A stretch of 64,000 nucleotides of DNA from Escherichia coli (GCF_041886205.1 NZ_CP169029.1), one strand, 5' to 3'. Positions 11,151-48,277 are shown, numbered from the stretch's first letter. Notes: a model not told the origin generated them from the letters alone. Numbers and translations are program-made.

Positions 11151-11155
11151 TATGA

Positions 11156-13844: not shown

Positions 13845-13920
13845 GGCCCTTTAGCTCAGTGGTTAGAGCAGGCGACTCATAATCGCTTGGTCGCTGGTTC
13901 AAGTCCAGCAGGGGCCACCA
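13845..13920 (+). tRNA. ileY: tRNA-Ile2 (anticodon CAT, lysidine-modified), ileY-type
   Basis: 76-nt cloverleaf ggccctttagctcagtggttagagcaggcgactCATaatcgc...ggggccacca with 7-bp acceptor stem and CCA end. Confidence 0.93.
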
Positions 13921-13928
13921 AATAAAAC

Positions 13929-13970
13929 AAGGACTTAGACAGGAAGCTGGCTAAGTCCTTTTTGTTTTGT
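13929..13970 (+). terminator. Intrinsic terminator after ileY
   Basis: Hairpin ggacttag...ctaagtcc followed by tttttgtttt. Confidence 0.6.
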
Positions 13971-13976
13971 TTCAAT

Positions 13977-14001
13977 CTGGGTGACGTAATGGGTGACGTA
14001 A
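13977..14001 (+). repeat. Tandem GGGTGACGTAA motifs at the tRNA-proximal island end; possible integrase arm-type or AlpA binding sites
   Basis: tgggtgacgtaatgggtgacgtaa; the same motif recurs at 33759-33804 next to the integrase start. Confidence 0.45.
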
Positions 14002-14036
14002 CTCAACTATAGGTGCCGTAGTCAGGGAGATTTAGC

Positions 14037-14831
14037 ATGAGCTTTAAGGATAAAGTTGAAGAGAAAAAAATGCGCCGTATGGCCCGTCCCCCTGAGTTAA
14101 CGGTAAAGGACTGGATTAGCCTTTATGATCTTCTTCGTTCAGCCAAAGCTCAAGACTCAGAAGCCATGTACGAAGACTTCGCCTCTGTGCTGTTAACTAC
14201 CCTGTCGGTTGAGCATCATCCGGAACTATACCGCCTGGACGGAAACAAACTAAACGCTGTTGCCGATGACCATTTTGCCTGGGACCTACTATCCGCCCCA
14301 ATGAAAGGGAAAATGTCCCCTGAAGAATTGGCGAAGCGCCCGAAGACCCTTTCCCAACTTCTTTGTATCTACGATGAAGATATCAGTAACGACGAGTCAC
14401 TTCGTACACATGGCTTCTTGCGTGACGCTATTGCCCCTATCCTCGATTTCGAGCTTCTGGATAGCATCGAAGATGAGCCTGACTACAAAGAAAAATATTT
14501 CGAGTTGCTAGCAGCGCAAAAGCACTCGACTCCCCCGCCACTAAGAGGGGAAAGTTATGCTATCAAACGAGAAGAGTTGCTGATCACAGCCCTTGCGGTT
14601 ATCTCTCAAAATCAAAGAGACGCTAATAAAAAGGTCGTCCCAACAGTTACTGAACTTCTGAATCAGATAGAAAAACATGCCTCTGCGTTCTGGCCTCACA
14701 GTAAACAACTTCCGATGTCTCGTGAGAATGCTTCTAAAGAGCTAGGCTTCGCCTTACATCTTTTAGAACAACCAAATCAGAATATTGAATTTCTTCGGGA
14801 AGCCAAAAAAGCAAAAAGAAAAAGTGCATAA
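14037..14831 (+). CDS. Hypothetical protein (264 aa), island-encoded
   Basis: Clean ORF with acidic helical composition and a lysine-rich C-terminus; no motif recognised. Confidence 0.5.
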   Translation: MSFKDKVEEKKMRRMARPPELTVKDWISLYDLLRSAKAQDSEAMYEDFASVLLTTLSVEHHPELYRLDGNKLNAVADDHFAWDLLSAPMKGKMSPEELAKRPKTLSQLLCIYDEDISNDESLRTHGFLRDAIAPILDFELLDSIEDEPDYKEKYFELLAAQKHSTPPPLRGESYAIKREELLITALAVISQNQRDANKKVVPTVTELLNQIEKHASAFWPHSKQLPMSRENASKELGFALHLLEQPNQNIEFLREAKKAKRKSA

Positions 14832-14963
14832 AAAGAAATAGTTACAAAAGGTACCCAGTAATCTTCAGGAAGGTACACGAGAAATATACCGTTCAGTTTG
14901 ATTAACTCCGTTCAGTTTCAGCTTTCACCACCAGGAGTTATTCAATTGAAAAATAAACCAACC

Positions 14964-15167
14964 ATGTCTGATAAGGTTGTCGCCCTTCATCAGCCCCAAC
15001 GTCTGATTCGCATTGATACAATGCTTCAGCTCCTCGATTGCAGTCGCACCACCCTCTACCGCTGGGTTAAAGCTGGCATTTTCCCACAGCCGATAATGCA
15101 TGAGGGCCGAACCGTAGGATGGCCAGCCAATACGTATCAATGCTGGCTTGAGCAAAATAACAAGTAA
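14964..15167 (+). CDS. AlpA-family phage transcriptional regulator (Prophage CP4-57 regulatory protein-like HTH)
   Basis: LIRIDTMLQLLDCSRTTLYRWVKAGIFPQPI matches the AlpA/MerR-like HTH pattern; start trimmed from ORF 14898 to MSDKVVAL. Confidence 0.65.
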   Translation: MSDKVVALHQPQRLIRIDTMLQLLDCSRTTLYRWVKAGIFPQPIMHEGRTVGWPANTYQCWLEQNNK

Positions 15168-15272
15168 TTCTGTTTGTTAAAGGGCTGAAATATTCAGCCC
15201 TTTCTTCATCTGACAATGAAACAAACTGGAACAAAAACGATTATTTTCACCTATTCTGCGACATGCTAAAAC

Positions 15273-16589
15273 ATGAGTAACTCTCTGATTAATCAAGTAA
15301 CAAAGCCCTCACCTGGTCAGGAACTCACCTCGGTATTTAATACTATTACGCCCGATAAGCCTGGCAACCTTGTTGAATATCAGCCAAAGGGAACGTTTGT
15401 TTTCAAAGAAGTGATGTGGTCTGTGCTGCCAGAGAAACGCAACCAGGACACGAAGATCATGAAAAGAATCTTCGGGGCAGTTGACAAGGTATCAGCGATG
15501 TCTCGCTTTCTTGCGGTCAGATATGATTTTCGGCTCCCGACCTACAGTGCGGATAATCGCATAATGGATGATTTCCATAATTTACTTTTCCGCCAGTTAA
15601 GTAAGAACTACCCAAAATCGTTTATCAGCTATCTTTGGGTAAGAGAGCAGGGCTCAGGGGAAGCACAGCATTATCACTATTTGTTGATGCTGGATGGCAA
15701 CTATATCCGTTATCCAAATAAGCTGAATACGATTGTCCGACATTGCTGGGAACAGGTTGCTGGTGGTTCGGTATGGTTCCCGGAAAACGGTTATTACTTT
15801 GTGAGCGAAAATGATCTCAAGACCTATACCGAATTGATGCTGAGAGTTAGCTATCTGGGTAAGCGCCGTACTAAAGAGTCAATTGATAAAGGTATCAAAC
15901 TTTTTGGCTCAGGCATGCGCAAACCGAAACCTGTCGCGCCTTCACGCCAAAAGTCTGCAATAACACCCTGCAAGCCAATCAACCAAAAAGCGGAGACGAA
16001 AACCAACGATCAGGATATGACGTTGAAATCCACCTACTCAGGAATGTTGGACAAATATTTTCTGGGCAAAGCCCGATTACCCGCCGTTCTGCGTAAACGT
16101 TCATCCTATGAACTTTATGACGAAAATAAATGGTGGTGTAATTCACCACGTTGGTCCGGCCATCGTCATAACTACGTGTTAGAGGCTCTGATTACTGGGA
16201 TCAGCCTTTCTGATTACGCACGCAAGTACAAGTTGAATCCAGTACGGGTATATGCAAACTGTCGCCGTGTTGGGGGGCAAAGCCTTAAAATTATTCACTG
16301 GGCATGGCATCGCTATTGCTTCCAGAAAAGCAAATCCACACAGGATGACTACATTAACAATCACCGGCTGAATCATAAAACAGCTAAAAAGCAGTTACGG
16401 CGTAAACCAATGAGCTCTCACTGGAGCCAGCACTTTGATCGATATTATCAAAAGTACTGGCCGAAAGGCTGGACTGTGGCCGACTACTGCCGTGAACACA
16501 ATCTGGTCGCCAGCACTGCCAGACGTTATATAGTCGATTTTCCATTTATAGGCCTGATAGACCCGTTCTTGTTGAAACCATGGTTATAG
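15273..16589 (+). CDS. YfjJ/YagK-family protein (inovirus Gp2-like), probable HUH-type replication initiator
   Basis: 438-aa ORF with HUH-like motif QHYHYLLML; AlpA-adjacent position as in CP4-57 yfjJ. Confidence 0.5.
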   Translation: MSNSLINQVTKPSPGQELTSVFNTITPDKPGNLVEYQPKGTFVFKEVMWSVLPEKRNQDTKIMKRIFGAVDKVSAMSRFLAVRYDFRLPTYSADNRIMDDFHNLLFRQLSKNYPKSFISYLWVREQGSGEAQHYHYLLMLDGNYIRYPNKLNTIVRHCWEQVAGGSVWFPENGYYFVSENDLKTYTELMLRVSYLGKRRTKESIDKGIKLFGSGMRKPKPVAPSRQKSAITPCKPINQKAETKTNDQDMTLKSTYSGMLDKYFLGKARLPAVLRKRSSYELYDENKWWCNSPRWSGHRHNYVLEALITGISLSDYARKYKLNPVRVYANCRRVGGQSLKIIHWAWHRYCFQKSKSTQDDYINNHRLNHKTAKKQLRRKPMSSHWSQHFDRYYQKYWPKGWTVADYCREHNLVASTARRYIVDFPFIGLIDPFLLKPWL

Positions 16590-17176
16590 AGATGAAAACA
16601 CCATAACAGTGTCACCTGGTATACTTACTGAGCGCGGCGTAACTTAAATATAAACACTTAGCCGCCATCAGTAAGCAGAGCCTTATCAACACTACCAGGG
16701 AATTATTGTGCAGCATGATAGCTGAGGTACCTCTCAATTCTTGACGGACATTAACGCACAGACAACGCTGATTACCTCCTGTAAGCCAATTTATATCTGC
16801 TTGCTGCCACATATCCGCTGGGACTAATCCCCTTTAAACACCTTTTACTTCAAAAAAATGTTTTCCTTCTGATTTATCCCATACGCGAAATAATGAAGAT
16901 TTTATTTTAATTACTAATACTTTCAATGAGATAAGATGCATACATTCTTACACTCATATGATCACTTTTATTTTTCTTTTAATATCAACACGTTATGAAT
17001 TGATCAGCACAAAAGTCACTGCAGGGGGTTAGCTGATTGAACGTTTCAGTTCGTTTCTAATGGCCACATATAGATTCACATCAAGAACTAGTGATCACTG
17101 TAGGGTAACGGTATGCCCAGATCAGCCTGCAGGGTATTCGCTGCGGATGACATGAAAAACAAAGACAGGGGATTGC

Positions 17177-17824
17177 TTACGGGTCAACAAACACACTGAT
17201 GGGGAGGTTAAACCGGCGCGCAAGTGCTCGCTTGTGATCCAGTGTTAATGTGCAATCCCCTTTCAGGATGCGACTCACCAGAGATTTATTACCAATCTCT
17301 TCTTCAAAATCGCTCTGAGTCAGTTTGTGCTGATCCATCAGTACGCGCAGTAAGGCAACACCCGTTGGGACCGCTGCAATACGGCTATTAAATTCAGCAA
17401 ACTCCGGCGCTTCATCTTCATACTGACCGATTTTCGCAACCAGAATATCCACCAGCGGATGGTCCGGCTCGTGTTCAATCAGATACTCGACCAGAGCCAG
17501 TGCATCTTCACTGTGGAAGCGTACGACTGATGTATAGGTAACATTTTGTTCAGTAATATATTTCATGGCTGCCAGTAAGTAGGAAGCTTTGAAAGTCACG
17601 TCCTGATAGTCCTTAGCTAACAAACTCCCATTCTCTTCAAACCGTTCAACAAATGCTGCAACTTCTTTTGGATCGATACGGCTGGTTTTATCTTTTCCGT
17701 TTCGAACAAACAGCTTTTGTTCTTCAGTATATAGCGTAAAAGGTACCTTCCTTGCCCCAGTAGACAGTTCAACTGGTTGGGAAAAAGACTCCAACATTAA
17801 ATGATAGAAATCTTTATAAGTCAT
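17177..17824 (-). CDS. Protein with C-terminal XRE-type helix-turn-helix and uncharacterised N-terminal domain
   Basis: C-terminal LTQSDFEEEIGNKSLVSRILKGDCTLTLDHKRALARRFNLPISVF resembles HigA/XRE HTH; immediately downstream of the McrC-like gene. Confidence 0.55.
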   Translation of the reverse strand: MTYKDFYHLMLESFSQPVELSTGARKVPFTLYTEEQKLFVRNGKDKTSRIDPKEVAAFVERFEENGSLLAKDYQDVTFKASYLLAAMKYITEQNVTYTSVVRFHSEDALALVEYLIEHEPDHPLVDILVAKIGQYEDEAPEFAEFNSRIAAVPTGVALLRVLMDQHKLTQSDFEEEIGNKSLVSRILKGDCTLTLDHKRALARRFNLPISVFVDP

Positions 17825-17913
17825 GATTACTACTCCCTCATCATTTTAGCACTCAAGAAAATACATGATGTGGTTGATTATCCGGTTGATAATTATGAAT
17901 CGTCATCGTCTCA

Positions 17914-19215
17914 TTACGGGGAAAACAGGGGGAAGGACGATTGCCACTCACCTTCCACTAATGCCCCTGATTCAAGCTCGAAGGGCACACACCAGAGCGA
18001 TAAATGTTTATCAAAATGGAACACTGGCAACGGAGTATCAAAAAACTGATGACGTGGATATATCAGCATCATATTCCCCTTCCCTTGCAGATATTTTTGC
18101 CCATAAGCGAACATCTGATACAGATCAGCCTGGTTAATTTCATACTTTCTCAGGCTGTTATCAGCTCGGCTGTCTAACAGCTTCCATTTGGCATCCAGTA
18201 CCATTACCTGCTCACCTGTGATGAGAAAGTCAGGTTTAAGCATGAACCATTGTTGAGGAGCCCTTTCGCCAGCAGGTACATGATCTAACAAATAATGACG
18301 TTTTGCCTGCTCAATAAGCTGATAATCCCTCAGCAAAGATAAAGCCAAACTGCGCCCCACCCAGCATTCATATAATTTTTCCATCGGGAACAACAGCGAG
18401 ATCCCCTGATGCAACCCATGCTGAAAATCTGGATTCAGTTTTTCCAGAATAAGTTGGCACCATGGCTTGATGGCACGATAAGCATAGAGATATTTACCGT
18501 TGCTCCATTGCGCCAGAGGCTGCGTTGTACTGCCACAAATTGGCTCTATACCGTCCAGTTGGTGGCTCAACGTGTTCGCCTGTCGCCAGCTCTGCCCCTC
18601 TTTGGTCATTTTAAGCACCCAATTCAGGGCCGTACGTAACAGACGGTTTTCAACTCGCTGAGGTGAAAACTCCGCATAACGCACATGAAAGCGAGCATCT
18701 CTACCAGGAGGCTGTCTCATTTGTGCCGTGATGTTCAACTGACCACGGATAAAAGCGCTGTGCTCATCCTCAACAAGGTGGTAGTCGAACCGCAACCCTT
18801 TGTGTACCAGTTCGGTAAGATGCCGCAAGAACTCGCTGAAAATCCACTCATGCATCGGCTGGTTGCTCCGCTGCAATGCAGCCTGATTAACTTCTCGGGG
18901 TGTAATCCCCAATGAAGCGCTGAGCATTCGACGTAAAAGCTGACGCAGGGGGATTATCTCAGTTGGCGCTTCAAATGTGGTTTTGGGCAGAATTTCAATT
19001 GACTCGCCATTCGGGGATTGTAGATAACCGACATAGCTTCCCAAACGCAAAAACCGCTTCCCTTCTCGGCTGAGAATTTGAGAGGTACCACTCCACTTTT
19101 GTTGCAATTGCTCAAGCCAGGAAAAGGTTGCCTCAGAGACAATTCCCAAATCCATACTGGCTGTTTGAGAACTATCACAAGTCAGCAGAGCATATTCCCG
19201 GACCTGGATCATCAT
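17914..19215 (-). CDS. McrC-like PD-(D/E)xK nuclease subunit
   Basis: 433 aa; C-terminal PDF...VLDAKWK catalytic-type motif; start overlaps the stop of the upstream McrB-like gene. Confidence 0.7.
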   Translation of the reverse strand: MMIQVREYALLTCDSSQTASMDLGIVSEATFSWLEQLQQKWSGTSQILSREGKRFLRLGSYVGYLQSPNGESIEILPKTTFEAPTEIIPLRQLLRRMLSASLGITPREVNQAALQRSNQPMHEWIFSEFLRHLTELVHKGLRFDYHLVEDEHSAFIRGQLNITAQMRQPPGRDARFHVRYAEFSPQRVENRLLRTALNWVLKMTKEGQSWRQANTLSHQLDGIEPICGSTTQPLAQWSNGKYLYAYRAIKPWCQLILEKLNPDFQHGLHQGISLLFPMEKLYECWVGRSLALSLLRDYQLIEQAKRHYLLDHVPAGERAPQQWFMLKPDFLITGEQVMVLDAKWKLLDSRADNSLRKYEINQADLYQMFAYGQKYLQGKGNMMLIYPRHQFFDTPLPVFHFDKHLSLWCVPFELESGALVEGEWQSSFPLFSP

Positions 19216-21194
19216 GTGACAATACCCTGATAAGCTTCTACCGACGCGAAAGCACGTTCATTGATGCGAAAACGCCTGTCAGACAAGCTATCCGCAATAT
19301 CTTTCGGGAATAGTTCAGAGAATGACGGTAATTGTGCTGACTGTTGCAACAGGATAAAACGGTTTTCTTTCGCTTTTACCGAATCATTAAGCACCCAACC
19401 AATGCGCTCATAATCATCAAAGAAATACTCTCTCAGTAATGGAATGATTTTGTTCTGGAAGATGCTGGCCAGACAGGCTTCGCGGTCGGCATTATTTTCT
19501 AATTTTTTTAGTGGCATAAAGTAAGCATGGCCAATCATATGTTCACTATCCAGCAGCGCTTCGATCCGCTGATTAATACGCGTTAACAACGTTTCGACAT
19601 CAACACCGAACGCAGTGACCCCAGCTAACAGCTCCGGTCGTGCGGGCATTTCGGTAAAGCTAAAGCGTCGTCTTAGCGCCAAGTCCATTTGGATGAGTGA
19701 TTTATCCGCAGTATTCATCGTCCCAATGACATAAACATTTTGCGGTACTGAGAATGCTTGCTTTGAATAAGGGAGCATCAGCGACCGCTCATCATCGGCC
19801 CCTTGACGTTTGTCCGGCTCAAGAAGAGTAATAAGCTCACCAAAGATACGTGCTATATTACCGCGGTTGATTTCATCTATTATCAGTACATGTGGTAGAT
19901 CCTGACTATCGGCATTCTCAACAGGAGCCAGCAACTGAGTTAATTTTTCACGATCAATCGTCGTATCCTGCAACTCATATAGGGTCATCTGAGATAGTGA
20001 CTTGATGAAAATTTGCTCTTTAGGAAGGCTTGGGGTGTATGTTCTTAACCATTTAACTGAACGCATTTGATGGTAATACTCACGTTCATCATTGGGTAAA
20101 TAACTATACTCACCTGTAATCTCAGCTATTGCACGGAACTTATGATTTCCATCAGAGACGACGACTAAATCGCCATTCTTAATAATATTTTTAAAGGTAT
20201 TCACGGCAACAGCCATATAATTACTGGTGCCTTCCAATGACTGTTTTTCTGATGCAATCCGAGCTTTGACTGACTCATAGGTAGAGCAGTTACTAAAATC
20301 GATATCTTCTCCCCAACCTAGCAGGACATAATTGTTTGCCAGGCAGTCCTCATACACATCCTCTTCTCCGCCCATGGTATTACCCAGAGACATCTTCCAG
20401 ATCCGCCGACCTTTGAGTGAGATAGATTGTGTTGCACTCCCCTGAACTTTAACCCTGGCATTCAGGCACAGCTGTTTAAAAATACCATCCACAACTTCGT
20501 AGCGAAGCGCGCCCGATTTTTCATCAGTAGTTGCGCGAATCCCTTCGATAAAATCTTCATAGGAGAAGCTCTGATGGAAGGTGGTAAACATAATGCGCTG
20601 CTTTTCTACCAACGCCTTATAGCGTTCATTTACCAACTCCCGTAAGTCATTGCCATGATGTTCGAGCGTAGCCTGTTGGTACCACGTATTATCGGCAATT
20701 TTGACCGCCATTTCGGTGGTACTGTAGGTTTTACCCGTGCCGGGTGGTCCAAAGAGAATTTGGTTTAAGGGATACATTAACGATTGTTCCTTATTTTCGT
20801 TGTCTCTTTTTAGTCTGGGTTGGGTAGTTATAGATGGTTTACCACCCAGCAAAGCCACCAGCGTCTGCAACGCTTCAACGGATTCAACATCAGCCGCGAA
20901 ACCATATTGGGATGTACCGTTATCTTTCGGATAACGGCGGTAGCTGGTGCTTTTTACTTTTTCCCAAAGGCAGTGGATACCCGAAATGCGATCAATTTCC
21001 GCTTTTACGGCAAGGGTTTCAGGTGCAAGAACCAATGGACTCTTTTTAACCACGCCGTCCCGGCTGCGTTTGACATACAGATACTTTCCATTCCCGAGCG
21101 CATGTTCGGATGCATAGCTTGGCTCGAATTTTCCCGCCTCAAGCCGGTAACCCAATTCATTCAACGCCTGGTATATCTCGAAAGAATTCAGCAT
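19212..21194 (-). CDS. McrB-like AAA+ GTPase subunit with an unusually long insertion inside the AAA+ module
   Basis: Walker A ILFGPPGTGKTY, McrB-signature LIIDEINRGN and RRRF; about 285 aa between Walker A and Walker B; AAGGAG RBS before the ATG. Confidence 0.75.
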   Translation of the reverse strand: MLNSFEIYQALNELGYRLEAGKFEPSYASEHALGNGKYLYVKRSRDGVVKKSPLVLAPETLAVKAEIDRISGIHCLWEKVKSTSYRRYPKDNGTSQYGFAADVESVEALQTLVALLGGKPSITTQPRLKRDNENKEQSLMYPLNQILFGPPGTGKTYSTTEMAVKIADNTWYQQATLEHHGNDLRELVNERYKALVEKQRIMFTTFHQSFSYEDFIEGIRATTDEKSGALRYEVVDGIFKQLCLNARVKVQGSATQSISLKGRRIWKMSLGNTMGGEEDVYEDCLANNYVLLGWGEDIDFSNCSTYESVKARIASEKQSLEGTSNYMAVAVNTFKNIIKNGDLVVVSDGNHKFRAIAEITGEYSYLPNDEREYYHQMRSVKWLRTYTPSLPKEQIFIKSLSQMTLYELQDTTIDREKLTQLLAPVENADSQDLPHVLIIDEINRGNIARIFGELITLLEPDKRQGADDERSLMLPYSKQAFSVPQNVYVIGTMNTADKSLIQMDLALRRRFSFTEMPARPELLAGVTAFGVDVETLLTRINQRIEALLDSEHMIGHAYFMPLKKLENNADREACLASIFQNKIIPLLREYFFDDYERIGWVLNDSVKAKENRFILLQQSAQLPSFSELFPKDIADSLSDRRFRINERAFASVEAYQGIVT

Positions 21195-21223
21195 TTCCTA
21201 CACCACTCCTTGATGAAAAAGCG

Positions 21224-24200
21224 TTAAGCCCCTTTCAACATATCAAACACCACGCGGGCAAAGCCCTTCGCCAGTTCAGGATTAGAGAGGTATTGCACCA
21301 TCATCTCCTGCTGGGCGTCGTTGCTGTCCATCACGGCATCATCAATGGCTTTCGGGAAATCGCCCAGCATCGCCTGCTCACGCGTATTGTTCGCAATCTG
21401 GGTCATCACCGCCTGGTTTTCTGACAGCTTGTCGCGCACCGCGAAGGCATAATTGATCATGTCTTTATCGGTCAGATTATCGGTGACGAACAGCTCGTTC
21501 AGGCGCGCCAGGATATTCGACAGAAACTCTTCTTTCTTGTCTTTCGGCTTCGCCGTACCGACATCATTCCCCGGTGTGATTTTGTATTCTGCCGCATCTT
21601 CCTGCAGCTTCAGATGCTGTTCGTGGAGTTTCGACAGGCGATAATGGCTCATCTCCACGTTGCTTAAATCAATCTCATCTTCTTCGATACGCTGTTCATG
21701 CAGTAACGGGCGCAGGTGGCGGGCAAATAGGCTCAGTTTTTCCAGGTTCTTGTCGTCGTAATCGACGATTTGCGACATAAACTCGTAAAAGCGGACAAAG
21801 CTGCCGAGGTCTTTCTTGAAGATATCCAGCTTACTTTTTTCTTTCTCGCACTCTTTGAAGCTGTTTTCCGCATTGGTGATCAGCACAACATCGCCGGTCT
21901 TCTTAGTACGTTCGAAGATCGCTTTGGCCTTTACATACTCGTCAATCGCCGAGGTGTAACGCTGTTTCCAGCGCTGCACCGCTGGTTTGCAGATATTACT
22001 AATGGCCGCGTTGGATTTGTTTTTGCTGAAGAACGCTTCGCAGAACTGCTCCACTTCGTTCCACAGGAAAATACCGCTGGTACGCAGCTTTTCAAAGAGC
22101 TCAAAGACCTGTTGCGGGTCGCTGACATCCGTCAGTTCTGCTGTCTGGTAGTACGGCTGGAAAGCCCCCAAAATCTCGTCGGGCTCGTTGTAGAAATCGA
22201 GCACAAAGGTGCCTGACTGCGCCTTCCCCGGATAGGTACGGTTCAGGCGTGACAGCGTCTGTACACACTCCACGCCGCCAAGCTTTTTATCCACATACAT
22301 GGCACACAGCTTGGGTTGGTCAAAACCGGTCTGGAATTTGTTGGCCACCAGCATCACCTGGTAGTCGTCGGTATCAAACGCTTTGCGCATATCCCGGCCT
22401 TTCAGGCCTGGGTTCATATTGATTTCGGTGAACTTCTGGTTAAGCAATGCAAGGCTATTGTGGTCATCTTCATGGAACTCAACTTCACCGGAGAACGCCA
22501 CCATTGCGCTGATCTTGTCGTATTTTTGCTCGGCGATGTATTTATCGAATGCCAGCTTATAGCGCACCGCTGCTTTACGCGAACTGGTCACCACCATCGC
22601 TTTCGCCTGACCAGCCAGTAAGTGCATCACATGCTTGCGGAAGTGCTCAACAATCACCTTCACTTTCTGCGACACGTTATGATCGTGCAGCGATACCCAC
22701 TGGTTGAGTTTGATCTTGGCTTTCTTGCTGTCTACTTCCCGGTCAGGATCGTCCAGCTTTTGCAGCAGCTTGTACGCCACCTTGTAGTTGGTGTAGTTCT
22801 TCAGCACATCAAGTATGAAGCCTTCTTCGATGGCCTGACGCATTGAGTAAACGTGAAACGCTTCCGGTTTGTTCGTTTTCGACGCCGGTTCCTGCGGATT
22901 AGGACGACGGCCAAACAGCTCCAGCGTTTTGGCTTTCGGCGTGGCGGTAAAGGCGTAATAGTTGAGATTGTTGCTGCCTTTACGTGCGGCGACGGTGGCA
23001 TCCAGAATATCTTCTGAAGACATCTCCACATCGTCATCCGCTTCTTCGGTCATAAGCACTTCTTTCAGCTGACGCGCCGTAGAACCACTCTGCGAGGAGT
23101 GCGCTTCATCGGCAATCACCGCGTATTTGCGCTGCTTGAGGCTGACGCTGTTTTCAATCGCCTTCAGGACAAACGGGAACGTCTGGATAGTGACGATAAT
23201 GATCGGCTGCGAGTTTTCCAGCGCGCTGGCCAGCTTCTCCGATTTAGAACCGTCGCCTTCTTTGTTATTGATCCGCCCGACCACGCCATCCTGATGCTCA
23301 AACTGATAGATGGTGTCCTGCAGCTGATCGTCAAGCACGGTGCGGTCCGTCACCACAATCACCGAATGGAACTGCTTCTCGCCATTTTCATCATACAGGC
23401 GGGAAAGCTGATGGGCCGTCCAGGCGATAGAGTTAGATTTGCCCGACCCGGCACTGTGCTGAATCAGGTATTTATTGCCGGTGCCTTCCACTGTGGCGGC
23501 GGTGATCAGTTTATTCACCACATCCCACTGGTGATAGCGTGGGAAAATCAGGCTCTCACTTTTGTACTTCAGGCCAATGGCATCTTCTTTTTCTACGATT
23601 TGCAGATGCACGAAGCTCGCGAGAATTTTCAGCAGATTGTCCGGCAGTAGCACCTCATTCCACAGGTAGCTGGTGGCGTAGTCGTTGGCATCTTCCGGGA
23701 TATCGTTCCCCGCACCGCCGTCATGGGTGCCTTTGTTAAACGGCAGGAAGAAGGTTTTATCGCCCTCGAGTTTGGTCGCCATAAACACTTCGTACTGGCT
23801 GACGGCAAAGTGCACCAGCGCGCCGCGTTTAAAGGTCAGCAGCGGCTCGGGTTTATTAGTGCCTGGGTCCTTTGGCAAACGCGTTTTCTTATATTGCGTA
23901 ATGGCGTTTTGCACCGTCTGCTTAAATTCAGACTTCAGTTCCAGGGTCGCTATCGGCAGGCCATTAACGAACAATACCAGGTCGATACGCCATTTCTTCG
24001 CTTTTATACCGGTATCTTCAAATGCGGCGTTCGATGCATGCGGGCTGTAAACCAGCTCCGGCACGATGCGGCAGATATTCTGTTTATAACGAGCCAGTGT
24101 TTCCGGATTGAGGTTATGTTCCGGCTTAAACTGGCACAGAGAAAAACGCGCGTTATGGCTTTTGATACCATGTCGCAGCACGCCTAAAGTGCCATAGGTG

Positions 24201-25791: not shown

Positions 25792-28175
25792 CAGGAATGT
25801 ACCTCCCGCAGCAGCTTCATAATCTCGGTACTGACTGCATCCAGATCGGCATCAATCTCTTCCAGTGGGCGCGGCGGCTGATAGACGTAGAAATGGCGGT
25901 TAAACGGAATCTCATAACCGACAATTCCCACCTCACCATCTTTCGCATCACGCTTATCGGCGTTGATCCACGCATCATTTACATGCGGCAGCACTTCTGC
26001 TTTGAAGTAGTTTTCGATCAGGTCGCTGGTCGACATTGCCGGGTTCAGCGGCACGTTTTCGTTATCGCGCAGCTCGCCGTCCTGTTCGAACTCAACAACC
26101 TTGCCTTTGTACTCAAACGCACCGTACAGCGGCTGAGCGGCTTCTTTCAGCACCTTCTTCACCACCGGCTCGGCATCCGGGTTTTTCGTGGTAATGGCAT
26201 CGATAAACTGCTTGTTCTCTTTCGCATCCAGCTTCACGCCAGCCGTTTTGATGGCCCCTTTCAGGGTCAGTTGGAACTGATTGAAGTCATTGCTCACCCG
26301 CGTTTTGCCACCCGCCTGCGCACCCAATACCACCTGAATCTGCTGTGCTTTTTCCATGAACTCGCGCTGTGCCAGCCACAATTTGCTGTCGAGCAGGTCT
26401 TTAATCTGCTTCTCTTTCAGCTCTGCAAATTCGGCTTTGATGATGGCGCGCGCTTCGGCTTCCAGTTCGGAGAAATCACCATAGCTGTCCTCCCTCCACT
26501 GGGATGCGAACTCTTCATACAGGCGTTCCATTGGCGCGTTAAACGGCTTCGGCGCAAAGCGCAGAGTCGCAATCGCTTCATCAGTCACCTGTGCAGATAA
26601 CCGCAGCGGGCGCTCAATGGTCAGGCGGCGATAGCCAAAGTCGGTGCTGTTAAAGATTTTGCTGGCGAAGGTTTTCGGAGCTTCGGTTTTGGCCATGGCA
26701 GGCTGACGGCCACGGTTGGATTTTTGCTCGGCGGCTTTTTCCAGACCCAGTTCTTCCAGGGCTGTGACATCCACCACCTGAAAATCACCGAAGGTCTGCG
26801 TGATCAGTTTGATATCGTCTTCGCCCATCAGGTTGCGCTTGGAACCCAGCGATTTACGCATTTTGCCGCACAGGTTAGTGCCATCAATCAGCTGTACTTT
26901 TCCTTTACGCTCAGGCGCTTTCTTGTTGGAGAGGATCCAGACGTAGGTGGCAATACCGGTGTTGTAGAACATATCTGTTGGCAGCGCGACGATGCCTTCC
27001 AGCAAATCGGCTTCCAGAATGTAGCGACGGATTTCGCTCTCACCGCTGCCCGCACCACCAGTAAACAGTGGAGAGCCGTTAAGGATAATCCCGATACGTC
27101 CGCCGTTGCTCACGGTGCCATCCACATTGTGGTTGTCGCGCATTTTGCTGATCAGGTGCATCAGGAACAGCAGCGAGCCGTCGGAAACACGCGGCAGGCC
27201 CGGGCCAAAGCGACCGTTAAAGCCCTTTTGCGTATGTTCGTCGTTAATCTCGCCCTCAATCTTCTTCCAGTCCACGCCAAACGGTGGGTTAGACAGCATG
27301 TAGTCGAATTGATCCAGCGGTAACTGGTCGTTAGAGAGGGTGTTACCCAGCTTAATGCGGCTGACGTCCTGACCTTTGATCAGCATGTCGGCTTTACAGA
27401 TAGCGTAGGATTCCGGATTCAGCTCCTGACCAAAAGCGCGCATCACCGCGTTAGGGTTCAGCTCGTGCACATATTCCATGCCCGAAGAGAGGAAACCACC
27501 CGTCCCGGCCGTCGGGTCATAAATGGTGCGGATGATACCAGGCTGCGTCAGGGCTTCATCATCTTCCATAAACACCAGTGAAGTGGTCAGACGCACGATA
27601 TCGCGTGGGGTGAAGTGCTCACCGGCGGTCTCGTTAGATCTTTCCGCGAAACGACGGATAAGTTCTTCAAACACCAGGCCCATCTCATAGTTGGAAATCG
27701 CTTTCGGGCTGAGATCGGTGGTGGCGAATTTCTTCACTACTTTGAACAGCAAGTTGGCGTCTTCCAGCAGGCCGACGAACTCACTGAATTTAAAATGCTC
27801 GAAGATTTCACGCGCATCGGGCGAGAACGACTGGACGTAATTCTCCAGGTTGGCTTTGATGTCGTTCTGCCCCATCTTGCCAAGATCCATCTTCGAGGTG
27901 TTGAAGAAGGAAAGCTCGCTGGCGCGCAGCAGAAACTTCTCTTTGGCATCTTCCGGCAGCGTGCTGGTTTTTAATTCATCATATTTCGCCACCACCGCAT
28001 CTTTGGTCTCCGCCAACACACACTCAAGACGGCGCAGCAGCGTAAAGGGCAGGATCACGCGCCCGTACTGAGACTGTTTGAAATCACCGCGCAGTAGATC
28101 GGCCACCGACCATATAAACGCAGCCGTTTGAGAAAAGTTAGTGTTAGTCATAAGCGACACCCAAAAAAATGGCAT
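25791..28175 (-). CDS. hsdM: Type I restriction-modification methyltransferase subunit (HsdM), long form; alternative start at 28151
   Basis: N-terminal HsdM_N-like region ([37 protein letters not shown]), NPPF catalytic motif, about 250-aa C-terminal extension. Confidence 0.82.
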
Positions 28176-28358
28176 AAAAAAGTGGCAAGATTATACCCCA
28201 TCAGGCATAAGATGCTTTGACTTATAACGCATCAGTTTGAAACACAATGGTGATGGGGGTCACAGGGGCTGACATGTACTTTTAAGATTAAAAAGCATTA
28301 ACATCTACTTTTGAAGAAAACAGAAAAAAACAATCACAAACCTTTAAAAACAAAAACT

Positions 28359-31300
28359 ATGCCAATTATTAATAAAAAGTATCAAGAGCTTCAGTTAACA
28401 GATGAGTACATTACCGATCCACTGCTCATGGCCCTAGCCTGGAAGAAAAGCCATCACTACATACGTACCACAAATTGGTATGCTGACAACTTTGAACTAG
28501 ACCTGTCGGCTTTGGACCTAATGCAGCACTGTAAAGATTGGGTCAAGAGAATGCAGGACAAAAAAGAATTTAAATTTTCAGAGCTACAACTTGTTCCTGT
28601 ACCAAAAGCCTGTAAATGGGAGTTTAAGACTGTCGAAAATAAGGTTCTATGGCAACCTTGTGATGAAAAAGAACTTACCCTACGCCCCCTTGCCCATATA
28701 CCCATAGCTGAACAAACCATCATGACATTAGTCATGATGTGCCTAGCCAATACAATAGAAACCAAGCAAGGAAACCCAGACACCAGCTATGACATCGTCC
28801 ACCAGAAAGGTATCGTCAATTACGGAAATAGACTTTATTGTCAGTATATTGACGATAAAGCAGAGCACAGCTTCGGTGCAACAGTGACATATAGTAAATA
28901 CTTCACTGATTATCGGAAATTTTTAAATAGGCCTTATCATTTTGCGTCAAAAGCGCAAGGTGAAATTTCGCCGGACGAAGCCGTTTACATCATAGAACTA
29001 GATCTTGCGAAGTTTTTCGATTTAGTAAACAGGAAGACTCTAATTCAAAAGATAAAAAACCATATCAGTGAGTCAATAAACAATAAAGAAAACCCACTCG
29101 CCAATCATTTATTTAAATGTTTTGCAAACTGGGACTGGACTGCATCTAGCATAAAAAATTATGACATATGCAAGTCAGACGAAGTAACAGAAATACCAAA
29201 AGGCATCCCTCAAGGATTGGTTGCAGCAGGGTTTCTATCAAATATTTACTTACTTGAATTAGATCAATTCTTGCATAATAAAATTAACACAGACATAACT
29301 GATGACATTAAATTTGTTGATTACTGTCGATATGTCGATGACATGCGATTTGTGGTTAAGGTTAAAAAATCAAAAAATAATAATACCGCATTCATAAATG
29401 ATGTAATAACCAATCTTCTTAAAAATGAGATAGATAATCTTGGACTGATAATTAATCCTAAAAAAACAAAAGTAGAAATTTTTAGAGGCAAATCCGCAGG
29501 CATCTCGCGTAGCTTGGAAAACATCCAGACCAGATTAAGCGGCCCAATATCAATGGATAGCGCCAACGAACAACTTGGGCATCTTGAGTCATTATTAAGT
29601 CTGACAAAAACCGATTTTGAACCACCGAAAAATGGTAAATCAAATAGATTAGCTGAGATTGAAAAAGACCGTTTCGATGTCAGGGAGGACACTCTTAAGC
29701 GCTTTTCTGCCAATAAAATCAGTAAGATACTAAAAGAGTTAAGACATTTCATCTCGCAGGATATAGATACTGATGGGGAGGTTATTGCCGGGGAATGGGA
29801 TTATCTGCAAGAACGTTTGGCACGGCGTTTTATTGTCTGTTGGAGCCATGACCCGTCACTGGCACTGCTACTCAAGAAAGGGCTGGAACTTTTCCCTGAT
29901 CCTAAGCTATTAGACCCTATACTTGAACAGCTTTGCTCACTCATTGAAAGCGATAATGAAAAACAAAGTGCAGTAGCTACTTATTGCCTTGCTGAAATAT
30001 TTCGACATTCAGCAATGACTATTCATAAAAAAGACACCTATGCATTCCCTGCACAAGCCAATGTGGATGGGTACTTTGAAAAAATACAACATTGCGCCGC
30101 GACATTCATTAATAAGCGCAGCGCCTCTGACAACGAAACTTGGAACCTGTTAATTAATCAGGCTAGTTTTCTGTTGCTTGTGCGTTTAGATAATACATTA
30201 GAAAAAAATGGCACTGATGCCAGGCATGATCTTATCTTAAAACTGGCATCAGGCTTTAGAACAATTACACTTCCCACTAAAATGGATAGCAAGACTATAG
30301 CCTCATGTATTTTGTTGGCTAGTCAATTAGTTAAAGATAACAAACCATTTATTCGCTCCTGCGCTTCTTTGTGCGAAAGAATTTATGACAAAGAACACGT
30401 CATAAAATTGAAGAAAATAGTTAGCATAATATCACATCAAAACTTATCATTGTTTAAATCCTTAGTTTATCATTCACGACCTTTACAACAGAAGTGGCTA
30501 AACTCAGACTCCGTGAAAATAATAATTAATGAATGCCATATAGATATACAACCTTTGGCGACTTCTTTAGGCATGATAAAAAGTAGTCACTCATTACTTA
30601 GAATCATATCAAGACCTGATAACCCATTTGCCAATGAGATAATGGCATTAAAACTGATGCAAGCCCTTTTATTGGACAGGATTGTTTGCCTGGATAATAA
30701 AAAAGATTATCAAATAAGTGTAGCAAACACCAAAGTGACGTTTCATAACTACTCCAACCCTCCAACATCGAATGTCTTCGATGCAGGAATGGATATGGAT
30801 GCAAAATTATTCAAATCATCGGGATGGGTCGATTCTATTTTCACGGATGATGCAGACACTCAAATATTGTATAGAGTTGCCATGTGCATCCGTTCAGTAC
30901 TACTCGGCAAACAAGACTGGACAGATTTTGGTCAAGCAATTTCCCCCAAACAGGGTTATCGGGGTATTAAAACTAGTAGAGACAAACGTCAATTGGGGAT
31001 GATGACAACACCTGAGTCCATTGCCGGTGAGAACTCTCAGGTTTCTGGTTGGCTTACCACACTCTTATCCAAGTTGCTTGCCTGGCCGGGAATTTCAGTG
31101 GGTGATAATGGATATCAATGGCCAGCAATTTTTACAGTAGATGCTGTCAGAAAACTAGTTGATGCTCGGCTGAGTAAACTTAAGCAGGATTACTGCAAAC
31201 TATCAGGAACTCCGGGACTTACAGAAAAAATACAGTTCAACTGGTCTGACTCGAAAAAAGCCCTAACAGTTGCTATGGTCCAGTCAAAACTGCCTGCAAC

Positions 31301-32135
31301 GAAAGATTTTGTCAGCCATGGACTTCTTTTAAACTCCGCAAAGTATAGAGTGATTCATCGCAGACATGTTGCTGAAGTGGCTGATTTAGTTGTAAAACAC
31401 ACGCTTGCACAAAAAACAACTCAACGAACTCATGGTGAAAAAATAGAGAACATTGATTTAATAGTATGGCCTGAGCTCGCTGTACATAGTGACGATTTGG
31501 ATGTACTCATCGCCTTATCTAGAAAAACGAATGCAATCATATACTCGGGCCTGACATTTATTGAGCAACCTGGAATCAAAGGACCAAATAATTGTGCCGT
31601 TTGGATTGTCCCACCTAAAAGCAATAGCAGCCAGAAAGAAATGATAAGACTTCAAGGCAAGCATAATATGATGGAAGATGAGAAAGGCCGGGTTGAACCC
31701 TGGAGACCATACCAATTGATGCTTGAACTTGTTCACCCCCAATTTACTGATAAAAAAGGATTTGTTCTCACAGGCTCCATTTGTTATGACGCAACCGACA
31801 TCGCGCTAAGTGCAGATCTCAGGGATAAATCAAATGCTTATCTTGTAGCAGCATTAAACAGGGATGTTAATACATTCGATTCCATGGTTGAAGCACTGCA
31901 TTATCATATGTACCAGCATGTTGTGCTCGTTAACTCAGGGGAATTCGGAGGATCTTACGCTAAAGCACCTTACAAGGAGCCGTTTAATCGTTTGATTGCT
32001 CATGTTCATGGCAATGATCAGGTAGCTATAAGTACGTTTGAAATGAACATGTTTGATTTCCGTCGTGATAATATAGGAAAAAGTATGCAATCCGGGTTAG
32101 ATAAAAAAACTGCTCCTGCAGGAATCATAATGTAA
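28359..32135 (+). CDS. Reverse transcriptase-nitrilase fusion, defence-associated RT type 1 (UG1)-like
   Basis: RT motifs GIPQGLVAAGFLSNIYLLELD and YCRYVDDMRFVV (YVDD); C-terminal carbon-nitrogen hydrolase motifs IVWPELAV and LTGSICYDATD; start trimmed from the TTG-initiated ORF 28311 to ATG at 28359. Confidence 0.75.
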   Translation: MPIINKKYQELQLTDEYITDPLLMALAWKKSHHYIRTTNWYADNFELDLSALDLMQHCKDWVKRMQDKKEFKFSELQLVPVPKACKWEFKTVENKVLWQPCDEKELTLRPLAHIPIAEQTIMTLVMMCLANTIETKQGNPDTSYDIVHQKGIVNYGNRLYCQYIDDKAEHSFGATVTYSKYFTDYRKFLNRPYHFASKAQGEISPDEAVYIIELDLAKFFDLVNRKTLIQKIKNHISESINNKENPLANHLFKCFANWDWTASSIKNYDICKSDEVTEIPKGIPQGLVAAGFLSNIYLLELDQFLHNKINTDITDDIKFVDYCRYVDDMRFVVKVKKSKNNNTAFINDVITNLLKNEIDNLGLIINPKKTKVEIFRGKSAGISRSLENIQTRLSGPISMDSANEQLGHLESLLSLTKTDFEPPKNGKSNRLAEIEKDRFDVREDTLKRFSANKISKILKELRHFISQDIDTDGEVIAGEWDYLQERLARRFIVCWSHDPSLALLLKKGLELFPDPKLLDPILEQLCSLIESDNEKQSAVATYCLAEIFRHSAMTIHKKDTYAFPAQANVDGYFEKIQHCAATFINKRSASDNETWNLLINQASFLLLVRLDNTLEKNGTDARHDLILKLASGFRTITLPTKMDSKTIASCILLASQLVKDNKPFIRSCASLCERIYDKEHVIKLKKIVSIISHQNLSLFKSLVYHSRPLQQKWLNSDSVKIIINECHIDIQPLATSLGMIKSSHSLLRIISRPDNPFANEIMALKLMQALLLDRIVCLDNKKDYQISVANTKVTFHNYSNPPTSNVFDAGMDMDAKLFKSSGWVDSIFTDDADTQILYRVAMCIRSVLLGKQDWTDFGQAISPKQGYRGIKTSRDKRQLGMMTTPESIAGENSQVSGWLTTLLSKLLAWPGISVGDNGYQWPAIFTVDAVRKLVDARLSKLKQDYCKLSGTPGLTEKIQFNWSDSKKALTVAMVQSKLPATKDFVSHGLLLNSAKYRVIHRRHVAEVADLVVKHTLAQKTTQRTHGEKIENIDLIVWPELAVHSDDLDVLIALSRKTNAIIYSGLTFIEQPGIKGPNNCAVWIVPPKSNSSQKEMIRLQGKHNMMEDEKGRVEPWRPYQLMLELVHPQFTDKKGFVLTGSICYDATDIALSADLRDKSNAYLVAALNRDVNTFDSMVEALHYHMYQHVVLVNSGEFGGSYAKAPYKEPFNRLIAHVHGNDQVAISTFEMNMFDFRRDNIGKSMQSGLDKKTAPAGIIM

Positions 32136-32155
32136 TAAATATTAGATATTTTTAT

Positions 32156-32194
32156 ATTAGAGGTGAGGAGATGGCGTCACCTCTAATATTTTCG
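32156..32194 (+). terminator. Intrinsic terminator after the RT-nitrilase gene
   Basis: Perfect 10-bp inverted repeat ttagaggtga/tcacctctaa followed by tatttt. Confidence 0.6.
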
Positions 32195-32428
32195 CTGATT
32201 GTATTTAGCATCAAATAATAAAGGTACAATTAATTTAAGTGACTATCATGAAAAAATTAGTTCCGCCATATCAAGTAACCCCGGCACAAATCTATCGTTC
32301 CGTTGCCAGTTCTACAGCCATTGAAACCGGAAAACCCGTGCAAGAAATTGAGCGACAGCTCAAACGTAACCGAACGCTGGCGAAGAACGTCGGCCTCGCC
32401 AGCAAATCCAGAGATCCGATTTAAGCCT

Positions 32429-33736
32429 CTATCTCTGCCCAAACAGGTTAACGACATTGTTTTCCTGCTGTTGCTGGTGGTTATTCACCCGAGACTCCCA
32501 GATCTCGAGAGCCTTACGCTTTTCAACCAGGTAATCGTAACGATCGTAGTGTTTAGAACTCACATCCTGTAGAGCATGGTTCTGAATGCGGTCACGCAGG
32601 TCTTTAGCAATACCCGCTTCGCCCATCAGGGTCTTACAGGTACGACGAATATCACGCGCAATAAAAGATGGGCTCAACGCAAAGTGTTGCCGGTAATAAA
32701 TGATGGCTTGTGCAAAGCTGTCTGTGCGTAGATGCTGTTCCGGTTTAATACGCTGCGGGAAGATGTAAGGACTCTGACTATGATTCTCAGCTTTCAACTT
32801 TTCGAGTATCTCAATGGCTGACTCAGTCAAAGGCACCAGATGATCCCTTTTATTTTTCGACACATCCGCCACTATCAATAACGTTTTTTCTTCCCAGTTA
32901 ACGGCATCCCAACGGCTGGAAACCAGTTCATGAGGCCGCTGGCCACCCGTATAGACACACAAGTTAAGCAATTGGCTGATTAACGGGCCGACCTTTGGTG
33001 CTTTAGGGAAATCCCCCATCAGTTGCTGCAACTCATCCAGCTTCAGCCAGTTTGTCCCTGCCTTCTCCGCTGCAGATTGTTTGGGTATGACACTCACTGG
33101 GTTCATTTGAAGCCCAAACATCACGTTCTGCTGGTGGTTTGCCGGATCGTTGTCAGCCTTCAACCCATAATTGAATGCTGCCATCAGATAAGAGCGAACA
33201 CGATTTGCTTCAACTGATGCGCCACGTTTAATAATGGTGGCCAGAATTTGTTTGATATGAGCGGGGATAACGTCACGCGCTTTCGTCGCTTTAGGTATAA
33301 ATGGATAGGTTTCTTTTTCCAGCCGGTACAAAACCTGTTGCCAGGTGCGTTTACCGTCTTCACGCATTTTGGTGGTGTAACCCAAAATGAGTTGCTCAAT
33401 GCTGCCTTTGAGCTGGTCTTCACGTTGTTGTTGTTCGGCAGAGAAAAGCTGCTCTGCGATTTCAGCTTTGGGGTCTTTCCCTTCTTTAAGAAGACCCGCA
33501 TGTTCTTTACATTGCTGTCTTGCCTGCGCGAGTGACAACTCTGGGAAACGGCCAAGCAGAATGAATTGCCGTTTTCCTTGCCAAAAATAACGATAGTAAA
33601 ATACTCGCTGACCCGATGGCTCAACTTTCACCCCTAATCGCCCTGCCCCACGCTCACCACTTTTATCCCATTCATAATAAGCAGTAGTCTTCGGCTTCAA
33701 GCCACTAATCATTGAGACAGTTAAATTATCAGCCAT
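32429..33736 (-). CDS. P4-type tyrosine integrase of the ileY island
   Basis: N-terminal arm-binding-like domain (MADNLTVSMISGLKPKTTAYYEWDKSG...RVFYYRYFWQGKRQ); start trimmed from ORF 33838 to ATG at 33736; adjacent to attR. Confidence 0.82.
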   Translation of the reverse strand: MADNLTVSMISGLKPKTTAYYEWDKSGERGAGRLGVKVEPSGQRVFYYRYFWQGKRQFILLGRFPELSLAQARQQCKEHAGLLKEGKDPKAEIAEQLFSAEQQQREDQLKGSIEQLILGYTTKMREDGKRTWQQVLYRLEKETYPFIPKATKARDVIPAHIKQILATIIKRGASVEANRVRSYLMAAFNYGLKADNDPANHQQNVMFGLQMNPVSVIPKQSAAEKAGTNWLKLDELQQLMGDFPKAPKVGPLISQLLNLCVYTGGQRPHELVSSRWDAVNWEEKTLLIVADVSKNKRDHLVPLTESAIEILEKLKAENHSQSPYIFPQRIKPEQHLRTDSFAQAIIYYRQHFALSPSFIARDIRRTCKTLMGEAGIAKDLRDRIQNHALQDVSSKHYDRYDYLVEKRKALEIWESRVNNHQQQQENNVVNLFGQR

Positions 33737-33758
33737 AGTATTTTTCAGTCCTTTGTTC

Positions 33759-33804
33759 GTTACGTCACCCAGTCTGATTCTGGGTGACGTAGTGGGTGAC
33801 GTAA
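33759..33804. repeat. Three GGGTGACGTA motifs (one inverted, two direct) upstream of the island integrase
   Basis: gttacgtcaccc ... tgggtgacgtagtgggtgacgtaa; same motif as 13977-14001. Confidence 0.45.
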
Positions 33805-33929
33805 GGATGATACTGAAGGTAAAAACGCAGAACAACATGAAACAACAACCAGCAAATAACCTACTGTTATTTATTAAATTTAATCTAACGTGAAAAAAGA
33901 TGCAAAATCATGAAACATGGATTTCATAT

Positions 33930-33976
33930 GACTCATAATCGCTTGGTCGCTGGTTCAAGTCCAGCAGGGGCCACCA
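33930..33976 (+). repeat. 47-bp direct repeat of the ileY 3' end (attR of the island)
   Basis: Identical to tRNA positions 13874-13920. Confidence 0.85.
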
Positions 33977-41854: not shown

Positions 41855-41932
41855 CGATTTGTTGCAATGATTCCTGTGGTTAAGCGAACTTGTTGTTGAA
41901 TAGCTCACATCAAGAAAAAAACTTTTTTTACG

Positions 41933-42034: not shown

Positions 42035-42079
42035 GGGATTTCAGGTAAAAAAAGACCGGCTGATGCCGGTCCGGGTAGG

Positions 42080-44413: not shown

Positions 44414-44424
44414 GGTGTTCTCCC

Positions 44425-45047: not shown

Positions 45048-45073
45048 ATTTTATTTTGGGGTGTCGTTTTTAA

Positions 45074-48261: not shown

Positions 48262-48277
48262 TTCAGGAGAAAAGACA

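Follow-up and report, generated by a model that had tools for sequence, protein, structure and literature searches.

A 20-kb anti-phage defence island bounded by a 50-bp direct repeat at ileY in Escherichia coli, with near-identical copies in Citrobacter

Introduction

Among the hotspots described by Hochhauser et al. (2023; PMC10121019), hotspot #9 extends from a pseudogenised amylase gene to smpB, is assigned to 'tRNA_Met_CAT' and is occupied in 62% of genomes, and hotspot #4, between yqjH and mug, involves the same tRNA type at 1.35%. That study also describes 'integrase-only' defence islands, for which the mode of mobilisation is an acknowledged open question (PMC10121019). Coliphage 186 is recorded as using two tRNA genes, ileY and ileX (PMC3448106). 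Here we analyse an island inserted in ileY within a 64-kb window of Escherichia coli DNA (GCF_041886205.1, NZ_CP169029.1; coordinates count from the first letter of the window). A preliminary description made from the sequence had recognised a defence island of about 20 kb in ileY, and this holds: the insert measures 20,056 bp and carries three anti-phage systems. We assign a probability of about 0.9 to the reading that positions 13924-33979 form a site-specifically integrated, horizontally mobile island whose tyrosine integrase targets tRNA-Ile2(CAU) genes. The literature that we searched yielded no report on this island, its integrase lineage, its exact junctions, or its presence in Citrobacter and Enterobacter.

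Results

The island is bounded by a 50-bp direct repeat derived from ileY

ARAGORN and Rfam (71.6 bits) agree with the preliminary description in placing an intact tRNA gene at 13845-13920, on the plus strand. It is the sole tRNA that ARAGORN finds in the region, with the anticodon CAT; the program labels it tRNA-Met, and RefSeq lists the identical gene under tRNA-Ile, among others in strains with an empty site. Because it lies between an amylase-like gene (ygaQ) and ypjC, as ileY does in K-12 (PMC3032704), we identify the gene as ileY, for tRNA-Ile2. A repeat finder returned a single long exact direct repeat of 50 nt, on the plus strand at 13874-13923 (attL) and 33930-33979 (attR), with a spacing of 20,056 bp. 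The repeat consists of tRNA positions 30-76 (47 nt, beginning in the 5´ strand of the anticodon stem and ending with CCA) followed by AAT, so that the exactness claimed for it earlier stands and its length, first given as the 47 bp of the tRNA part, becomes 50 bp. When up to three mismatches are allowed, a 32-mer of the repeat occurs twice and no more in the window, where chance would give 0.00, and neither a third nor a degenerate copy of the core lies inside the island.

Direct repeats from the 3´ part of a tRNA gene bound the element, as is characteristic of tRNA-integrated islands. Since the duplication spans the anticodon stem to the tRNA 3´ end, the island swaps the 3´ part of the tRNA for an identical copy and leaves the ileY gene intact; its last 47 nt are now supplied by the island (attL), and the displaced host 3´ end survives as the partial tRNA at attR. 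An identity block running from the anticodon stem-loop to the 3´ end presumably places the site in the 'anticodon-loop' attachment class of Williams (2002). One E. coli copy of the island (L011) has a G-to-A change in attR, at 33967.

An empty site was reconstructed in silico by joining 12400-13923 to 33980-35500, which removes one repeat copy and the intervening DNA, and the resulting 3,045 bp were compared with 5,426 complete E. coli genomes. The closely related strain wlxctx60 matched the junction in one piece at 100.0% over 3,045 bp, 2,872 of the 5,426 genomes covered at least 80% of it in one place, and several other top matches were broken only by an insertion sequence (IS). The gene order in wlxctx60 is amylase-like gene, tRNA-Ile and ypjCB, the last starting 756 bp on; in the window, the ypjC-like open reading frame (ORF; YpjCB, 939 bits) starts the same 756 bp past the partial repeat. 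The equal spacing and the one-piece empty site together mean that the insertion of 13924-33979 was precise, with 50 bp duplicated. They also bear out the view of the preliminary description that the ypjC-like ORF is the ancestral neighbour of ileY, now beside the partial repeat, and the comparison with empty-site E. coli genomes that it had proposed comes out in its favour.

Near-identical copies occupy the equivalent tRNA gene in other genera

By megablast, which reaches roughly 85% identity or more, island DNA is present in only one of the 5,426 complete E. coli genomes, GDSC2227PM, and neither the integrase gene nor the gene for the DRT1 reverse transcriptase (see below) has a match in any of them. 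GDSC2227PM keeps the left 14 kb, and an IS1 has removed everything right of hsdM, including the integrase and the right repeat. This is the single case in which the same genes were found at the locus without integrase or repeat, an arrangement that the preliminary description would have read as vertical inheritance; the IS1 cut after hsdM marks it as decay instead.

An index of the assembly collection lists the exact 435-residue integrase in 151 blocks, with E. coli, Citrobacter and Enterobacter contexts, and the protein carries the NCBI label 'MULTISPECIES [Enterobacteriaceae]'. A copy in an E. coli ileY context (GCA_036252075.1; L004) matches the window at 100% identity throughout 22429-43736. 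Most copies that are not at ileY lie between ure-tsaD-rpsU-dnaG-rpoD-mug-tRNA and the dha operon; the tRNA-Ile(CAU) gene beside mug is at the position of ileX. The exact Mug protein identifies these hosts as Citrobacter freundii (L016) and Enterobacter (CP095170.1; L006 and L017). Klebsiella, considered as the host from the urease and dha genes, was ruled out by the exact-protein look-up, which returned Citrobacter and Enterobacter.

The Citrobacter copies are 99.96-99.97% identical to the window, with 3-5 mismatches over 11.5 kb. Alignment between genera begins at the tRNA and stops at 33979 (33978 in L007 and L008), and the host flanks do not align. At position 6 the host tRNA of Citrobacter and Enterobacter keeps a base of its own, C rather than T, and its 3´ 47 nt are identical to the island copy. 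Because homology ends exactly at the repeat ends, the comparison directly shows a recent, site-specific transfer of the island between genera, in which the integrase would target ileY in E. coli and the ileX equivalent beside mug in Citrobacter and Enterobacter. These shared junctions and the empty site both support the site-specific insertion proposed in the preliminary description.

The integrase represents a lineage associated with the partial tRNA copy

The tyrosine integrase (435 aa; 32429-33736, minus strand) reads away from attR and lies 194 bp from it, giving the tyrosine recombinase beside an att site that is expected of such an element. Its domains in Pfam are Arm-DNA-bind_3 (2e-15), Phage_int_M and Phage_integrase (1e-14), and it matches the PHROG integrase family phrog_1 at 2e-40. 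On the model for P4-like integrases (NCBIfam PRK09692 / NF007246) it scores 95.4 bits against a cut-off of 434, whereas the integrase of a second island in the window, adjoining ssrA, scores 589.8 bits and is 28% identical to it. Its best phage match is 41%. The integrase therefore has the P4-like domain architecture and stands outside the P4-like family, and the term 'P4-type' of the preliminary description is apt for the former only.

The integrase is next to the partial repeat, at the end far from the intact tRNA, and the genes for AlpA and a YfjJ-like protein adjoin the intact tRNA, the reverse of the usual tRNA-int-alpA layout. In relatives of the integrase at 95% identity (Buttiauxella, Silvania) and at 79-80% (Pantoea, Erwinia, Chimaeribacter), int is always preceded, at about 190 bp, by a partial tRNA-Ile copy, and an intact tRNA is absent from the roughly 10 kb examined on each side. 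Because these relatives share the partial copy, the position of int beside a displaced tRNA fragment is a conserved trait of the lineage rather than an accident.

Sequences flanking the attachment site include candidate integrase arm sites

Directly 3´ of the tRNA, the island brings in a terminator-like hairpin followed by a U-run (about 13928-13969, plus strand). A simple terminator scan missed it; RNA folding gave -22.4 kcal/mol (z -5.3), with 0 of 200 shuffles equally stable. All other hosts have the hairpin in the same position.

Two tandem GGGTGACGTAA motifs follow at 13979-14001 (plus strand), and three motifs of this type, one inverted and two direct, lie upstream of int at 33760-33804 (no strand assigned). 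The 11-mer GGGTGACGTAA has seven matches in the 64 kb at up to one mismatch, against 0.61 expected, and five of the seven are within about 170 bp of the island ends. We infer that the motifs make good candidates for arm-type sites of the integrase, flanking attP with the pair after the tRNA in the P´ arm and the three before int in the P arm.

The left end encodes an AlpA-family protein and a YagK/YfjJ protein

Three genes on the plus strand occupy the end nearest the tRNA. The first, orf264 (14037-14831), encodes a conserved, island-specific protein with no match in Pfam, NCBIfam, PHROG or PADLOC; its homologues form only 17 clusters, all in Enterobacterales, and an AlphaFold2 model from a 13-sequence alignment had a pLDDT of 45 and was unusable. 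The other two, which the preliminary description had named as an AlpA-like regulator and a YfjJ-like replication-type protein, are both present by Pfam. The product of 14946-15167 is an AlpA-family helix-turn-helix (HTH) protein (Pfam Phage_AlpA, 1.4e-7; phrog_66 'excisionase and transcriptional regulator', 1.7e-9), a putative excisionase or activator. The second, at 15273-16589, is a 438-residue YagK/YfjJ (inovirus Gp2-like) HUH protein, a putative rolling-circle initiator or relaxase, with matches to YagK_YfjJ_C (5e-15) and REP_ORF2-G2P (6e-5), the HUH motif at 133-135 (H133-Y-H135) and YLGK at 194-197. A tblastn search of 50,697 phage records gave no match to it.

The C-terminal HTH of the YagK/YfjJ protein matches the N-terminus of terminase small subunits (phrog_1711, 3.7e-7). 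By eye, residues of about 300-438 (window 16100-16589) contain three HTH-like repeats, SLSDYARKYKLNPVRVY, TQDDYINNHRLNHKTAKKQL and WTVADYCREHNLVASTARRYI, and the last of these, WTVADYCREHNLVASTARRYI, is the unit that matches the terminase small-subunit N-termini.

About 14 of the 20 kb is defence cargo, and the cargo varies

Three anti-phage systems, a type I restriction-modification (R-M) system, a McrBC-like modification-dependent nuclease and DRT1, take up about 14 of the 20 kb (17914-32135), the clustering of several independent systems that defines a defence island. PADLOC, Pfam and NCBIfam thus recover every part of the R-M/McrBC string and the reverse transcriptase-nitrilase listed in the preliminary description.

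The McrC-family nuclease subunit (17914-19215, minus strand; Pfam PF10117 McrBC, RefSeq 'McrC family protein') reaches 62 bits in NCBIfam (4.8e-17), under the equivalog cut-off of 338 bits. Its partner, a McrB-like AAA+ GTPase subunit with an inserted domain (19212-21194, minus strand; Pfam AAA_5, McrB_lid and DUF8426), reaches 121 bits on the NCBIfam McrB model (6e-35), where the equivalog cut-off is 637 bits. Since the family-level Pfam matches are present and both scores fall short of the cut-offs for the K-12 enzyme, the two genes encode a divergent McrBC-like pair rather than the K-12 enzyme. Residues 281-391 of the McrB-like protein match the PADLOC PDC-S02 domain; the insert, of some 130 aa (PDC-S02-like; DUF8426), was read as lying between the Walker A motif and the remaining AAA+ module, and the N-terminal region bears no likeness to known families. 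Downstream of mcrC, orf215 (17177-17824, minus strand) encodes a protein with an XRE-type HTH at its C-terminus (phrog_1373, 1e-7; Pfam HTH_3, weak at 1.4e-3) and a partial PADLOC match to PD-Lambda-2_B (9e-7).

The type I R-M genes are adjacent and overlapping on the minus strand, as expected for such a system: hsdR (21224-24472; PADLOC REase_I 2.5e-35; Pfam HSDR_N, ResIII and a T1R_D3-like match), hsdS (24469-25791; Specificity_I 4e-101), and hsdM (25791-28151; MTase_I 1.5e-285), whose product is 786 aa as called, from an ORF reaching 28175, with HsdM_N and N6_Mtase domains. On the plus strand, 28311-32135 encodes a DRT1 (UG1) reverse transcriptase-nitrilase. The protein is full length by PADLOC Drt1a (E=0, 1396 bits; residues 20-1272 against 4-1176 of the 1176-position profile), and its C-terminal nitrilase matches RTasNitrilase over residues 761-1272 (2.7e-118). 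The DRT1 system itself has already been characterised. Between DRT1 and int, a 58-residue ORF (32248-32424, plus strand) is a called gene in most copies of the island (L004 to L012) and has no PHROG match.

Comparison among copies and relatives shows that the cargo is modular, with variation in the DRT1 slot beside int and in hsdS. Enterobacter CP095170.1 (L006 11602-21308; L017 13825-20795) has the same island ends, orf264-alpA-yfjJ and int, around different cargo: a group-2 capsule (kps-like) cluster, with an IS copy on either side, replaces mcrC to most of DRT1, leaving a 138-residue DRT1 remnant. The Silvania relative (L025) has int followed directly by hsdM, without DRT1, and in Buttiauxella massiliensis (L024 11980-14604) the slot holds two ORFs of 582 and 270 aa, which have no PADLOC match and are candidate defence genes. 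The specificity gene is swapped in several copies, being unaligned in L024 and L025 and of other lengths in L018 and L023. In a 79% relative, on an IMG/VR contig, PDC-S11 and a different type I R-M system lie beside int.

Two further observations concern damage to particular copies. An IS3-family element splits the YfjJ-like gene in a copy with Citrobacter context (L019 11563-12710), and orf215 is truncated in GDSC2227PM; individual copies of the island are therefore decaying.

Other segments of the window

The island adjoining ssrA (53333-53695) occupies 41900-53330 and is a P4-like satellite with the canonical layout. In coordinate order it carries an alpha-primase (42080-44413), Psu-like genes (47219-48853), a 186-type cos-like site (49018-49036) and a P4-type integrase (51961-53148; 590 bits). 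The cargo slot between psu and int contains ORFs at 49105-50685 (526 aa) and 50815-51801 (328 aa; weak match to an Hjc-like nuclease). Neither has a PADLOC match, and they are possible uncharacterised defence genes. In wlxctx60, which has the empty ileY, the satellite slot holds a SIR2 gene.

The 8.6 kb at 2663-11253 contains no ORF longer than 190 aa and has no megablast match in the 5,426 complete genomes or the plasmid collection; 5001-9000 has no distant-blastn match in the same genomes. The flanks of this segment are 99.9-100% identical to wlxctx60, which has 10.2 kb in its place, from stpA through gabPTD, lhgD and glaH, and the island-carrying GCA_036252075.1 has native gab genes there. 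With this segment in place, the amylase-like gene lacks its 3´ end (709 aa versus 750). A simple shuffle of native DNA is ruled out, and the segment looks like non-native filler.

Discussion

Our chief results are the exact boundaries of the ileY island, its identity across genera, the apparent dual targeting of ileY and ileX, and the variable slot beside int. The likeliest picture of its movement, as we infer it, combines excision by Int and AlpA, nicking and replication by the HUH protein, and transfer with the aid of a helper. Integration would be an Int-catalysed recombination between an attP of roughly 300 bp, made up of the core with GGGTGACGTAA arm sites on both sides, and the tRNA gene, with crossover at the anticodon-loop end of this block of identity. 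The excision or directionality factor would be AlpA, and once the circle had formed, int and orf264-alpA-yfjJ would point away from attP in opposite directions. The HUH YagK/YfjJ protein might then nick and replicate the circle, or mobilise it; by its motifs, it could be a relaxase. As genes for capsids, packaging or conjugation are absent from the island, movement between cells would presumably proceed via a helper.

Several points weigh against this account of a mobile, site-specific element. As the attL and attR cores are identical, the crossover point within the core cannot be located. The arm sites are so far candidates by statistical enrichment rather than demonstrated binding, and the roles given to Int, AlpA and the HUH protein are read from domains and motifs. 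The 92-nt attP junction predicted for the excised circle has no exact match in viral or metagenome contigs, although assemblies rarely capture circles. The list of island ORFs leaves none for a type IV secretion system, PHROGs identify no phage structural, packaging, capsid or satellite genes among the non-defence island proteins, and no P2/186 cos-like site lies in the island at up to three mismatches. As a positive control, the same cos query matches the ssrA satellite at 49018-49036.

A rival idea makes the island a P4-like or PICI-like phage satellite, packaged by a helper phage that could be of P2/186 type and use the same tRNA-Ile site. Its set of int, alpA and a Rep-like gene resembles that of PICI (phage-inducible chromosomal island) and CP4-57-type modules, the Rep-like protein ends in the HTH that matches terminase small subunits, and P2/186-like prophages stand in tandem with the island (L020 1-9800) or a relative (L038 1-9200) at the same tRNA, in both orders. 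The L020 prophage integrase abuts a partial tRNA copy that starts at 13875, one base after the island repeat. The record of phage 186 at both tRNA genes also speaks for the idea. Such tandems are expected wherever an attachment site is shared, and so need no helper relationship. Set against this idea, PHROGs find no psu, sid, delta, primase, capsid-redirecting or complete terS gene, and the features of P4-like satellites (psu, sid, delta, alpha-primase and a P2-type cos) are lacking; the ssrA satellite does have a cos-like site. Of the PICI features, int, alpA and an HUH Rep-like protein are present and primase, terS, ppi and rpp are not, and the length is 20 kb rather than 10-15 kb; typical phage satellites are smaller than 20 kb. 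The lack of a tblastn match to the YfjJ-like protein in the phage records points the same way, and we regard a satellite as improbable. The layout itself, with int far from the tRNA and alpA-yfjJ at the opposite end, might instead suggest two unrelated elements side by side, an int-less alpA-yfjJ remnant and an int-DRT1-RM element, particularly as the commoner E. coli ileY islands have int, alpA, yfjI and gp2 contiguous. We consider this very improbable: the island contains no internal att core, both ends recur in Citrobacter at >99.9% identity with the same two junctions, orf264 and int share contigs in the diverged hosts Buttiauxella selenatireducens and Citrobacter gillenii, and the GGGTGACGTAA motif marks both ends. 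The evidence favours reading the island as a single element.

An island ancestral at ileY, inherited vertically and lost by deletion from strains with the empty site, could appeal to GDSC2227PM, with its left 14 kb and neither integrase nor right repeat. That copy is IS1-cut, the island is in a single complete E. coli genome when at least 2,872 have the uninterrupted site, and the 99.97% identity to Citrobacter copies stops where the host flanks begin; vertical inheritance is effectively refuted. Returning to the mobile, site-specific island, a bolder extension, which we regard as doubtful, is that it belongs to a separate family, as yet unnamed, of 'integrase-only' elements that are specific for tRNA-Ile2(CAU) across Enterobacterales and move between genera by undescribed helper use. 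The marks of this family may be int set against an AlpA/HUH-Rep module across attP, a Rep fused to TerS-like HTH repeats, and a swapping slot beside int. Its helpers may be 186/P2-like phages that share the site, or a conjugative plasmid able to recognise a nick that the HUH protein makes.

The island shows, in clean and fully delimited form, anti-phage systems travelling as one 20-kb unit, essentially identical in E. coli and Citrobacter and always in a tRNA-Ile(CAU) gene among the copies. Its exact junctions, empty site and candidate attP ease the design of excision and transfer experiments, making it a workable model for how 'integrase-only' islands move between cells, and the variable slot beside int is a place to seek uncharacterised defence genes.

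The closest described systems share parts of this organisation. The commoner E. coli ileY islands (ET776, NZ_CP100909.1) occupy the same site in the same orientation, again with int next to the partial ileY, and have an integrase type found in about 430 records. Their integrase is of a different lineage, with 58% protein and 67-69% DNA identity to the one described here. They are likewise rich in defence genes, with different cargo (type I R-M, a UvrD helicase with an ATP-dependent endonuclease, and a PD-(D/E)XK nuclease), and unlike our island they have int, Fic, AlpA, YfjI and Gp2 contiguous at the int end. CP4-57 and CP4-6 of K-12 resemble the island in their tyrosine integrase with an arm-binding domain, AlpA, YagK/YfjJ Gp2-like protein and tRNA or tmRNA site; the island differs in lacking yfjI, in having int at the partial repeat, in having alpA-yfjJ at the opposite end, and in an Int with only 28% identity to the P4/CP4-57-type integrase at ssrA. 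Excision of CP4-57 is driven by AlpA. A precedent for the layout is the Yersinia high-pathogenicity island (HPI), which has int at one end and the AlpA-like excisionase Hef at the other, so that the two flank attP in the circle; the HPI differs in its asn tRNA genes, its siderophore cargo, and an int beside the intact tRNA. Coliphage 186, a P2-like phage, shares the tRNA-Ile(CAU) attachment genes with the island (PMC3448106). It is a complete phage, in contrast to the island, which has no phage genes or cos site. The P2-type integrase of 186 is also of a different family from the island integrase. The nearest category is that of the 'integrase-only' islands of Hochhauser et al., with the same loci (#9, and #4 for the ileX site) and the same combination of an integrase and defence genes without recognisable transfer machinery; that study pooled ileY and ssrA as one hotspot, named the tmRNA locus. 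The island is thus a new, well-delimited member of a known element type in a known hotspot, and it fits current understanding.

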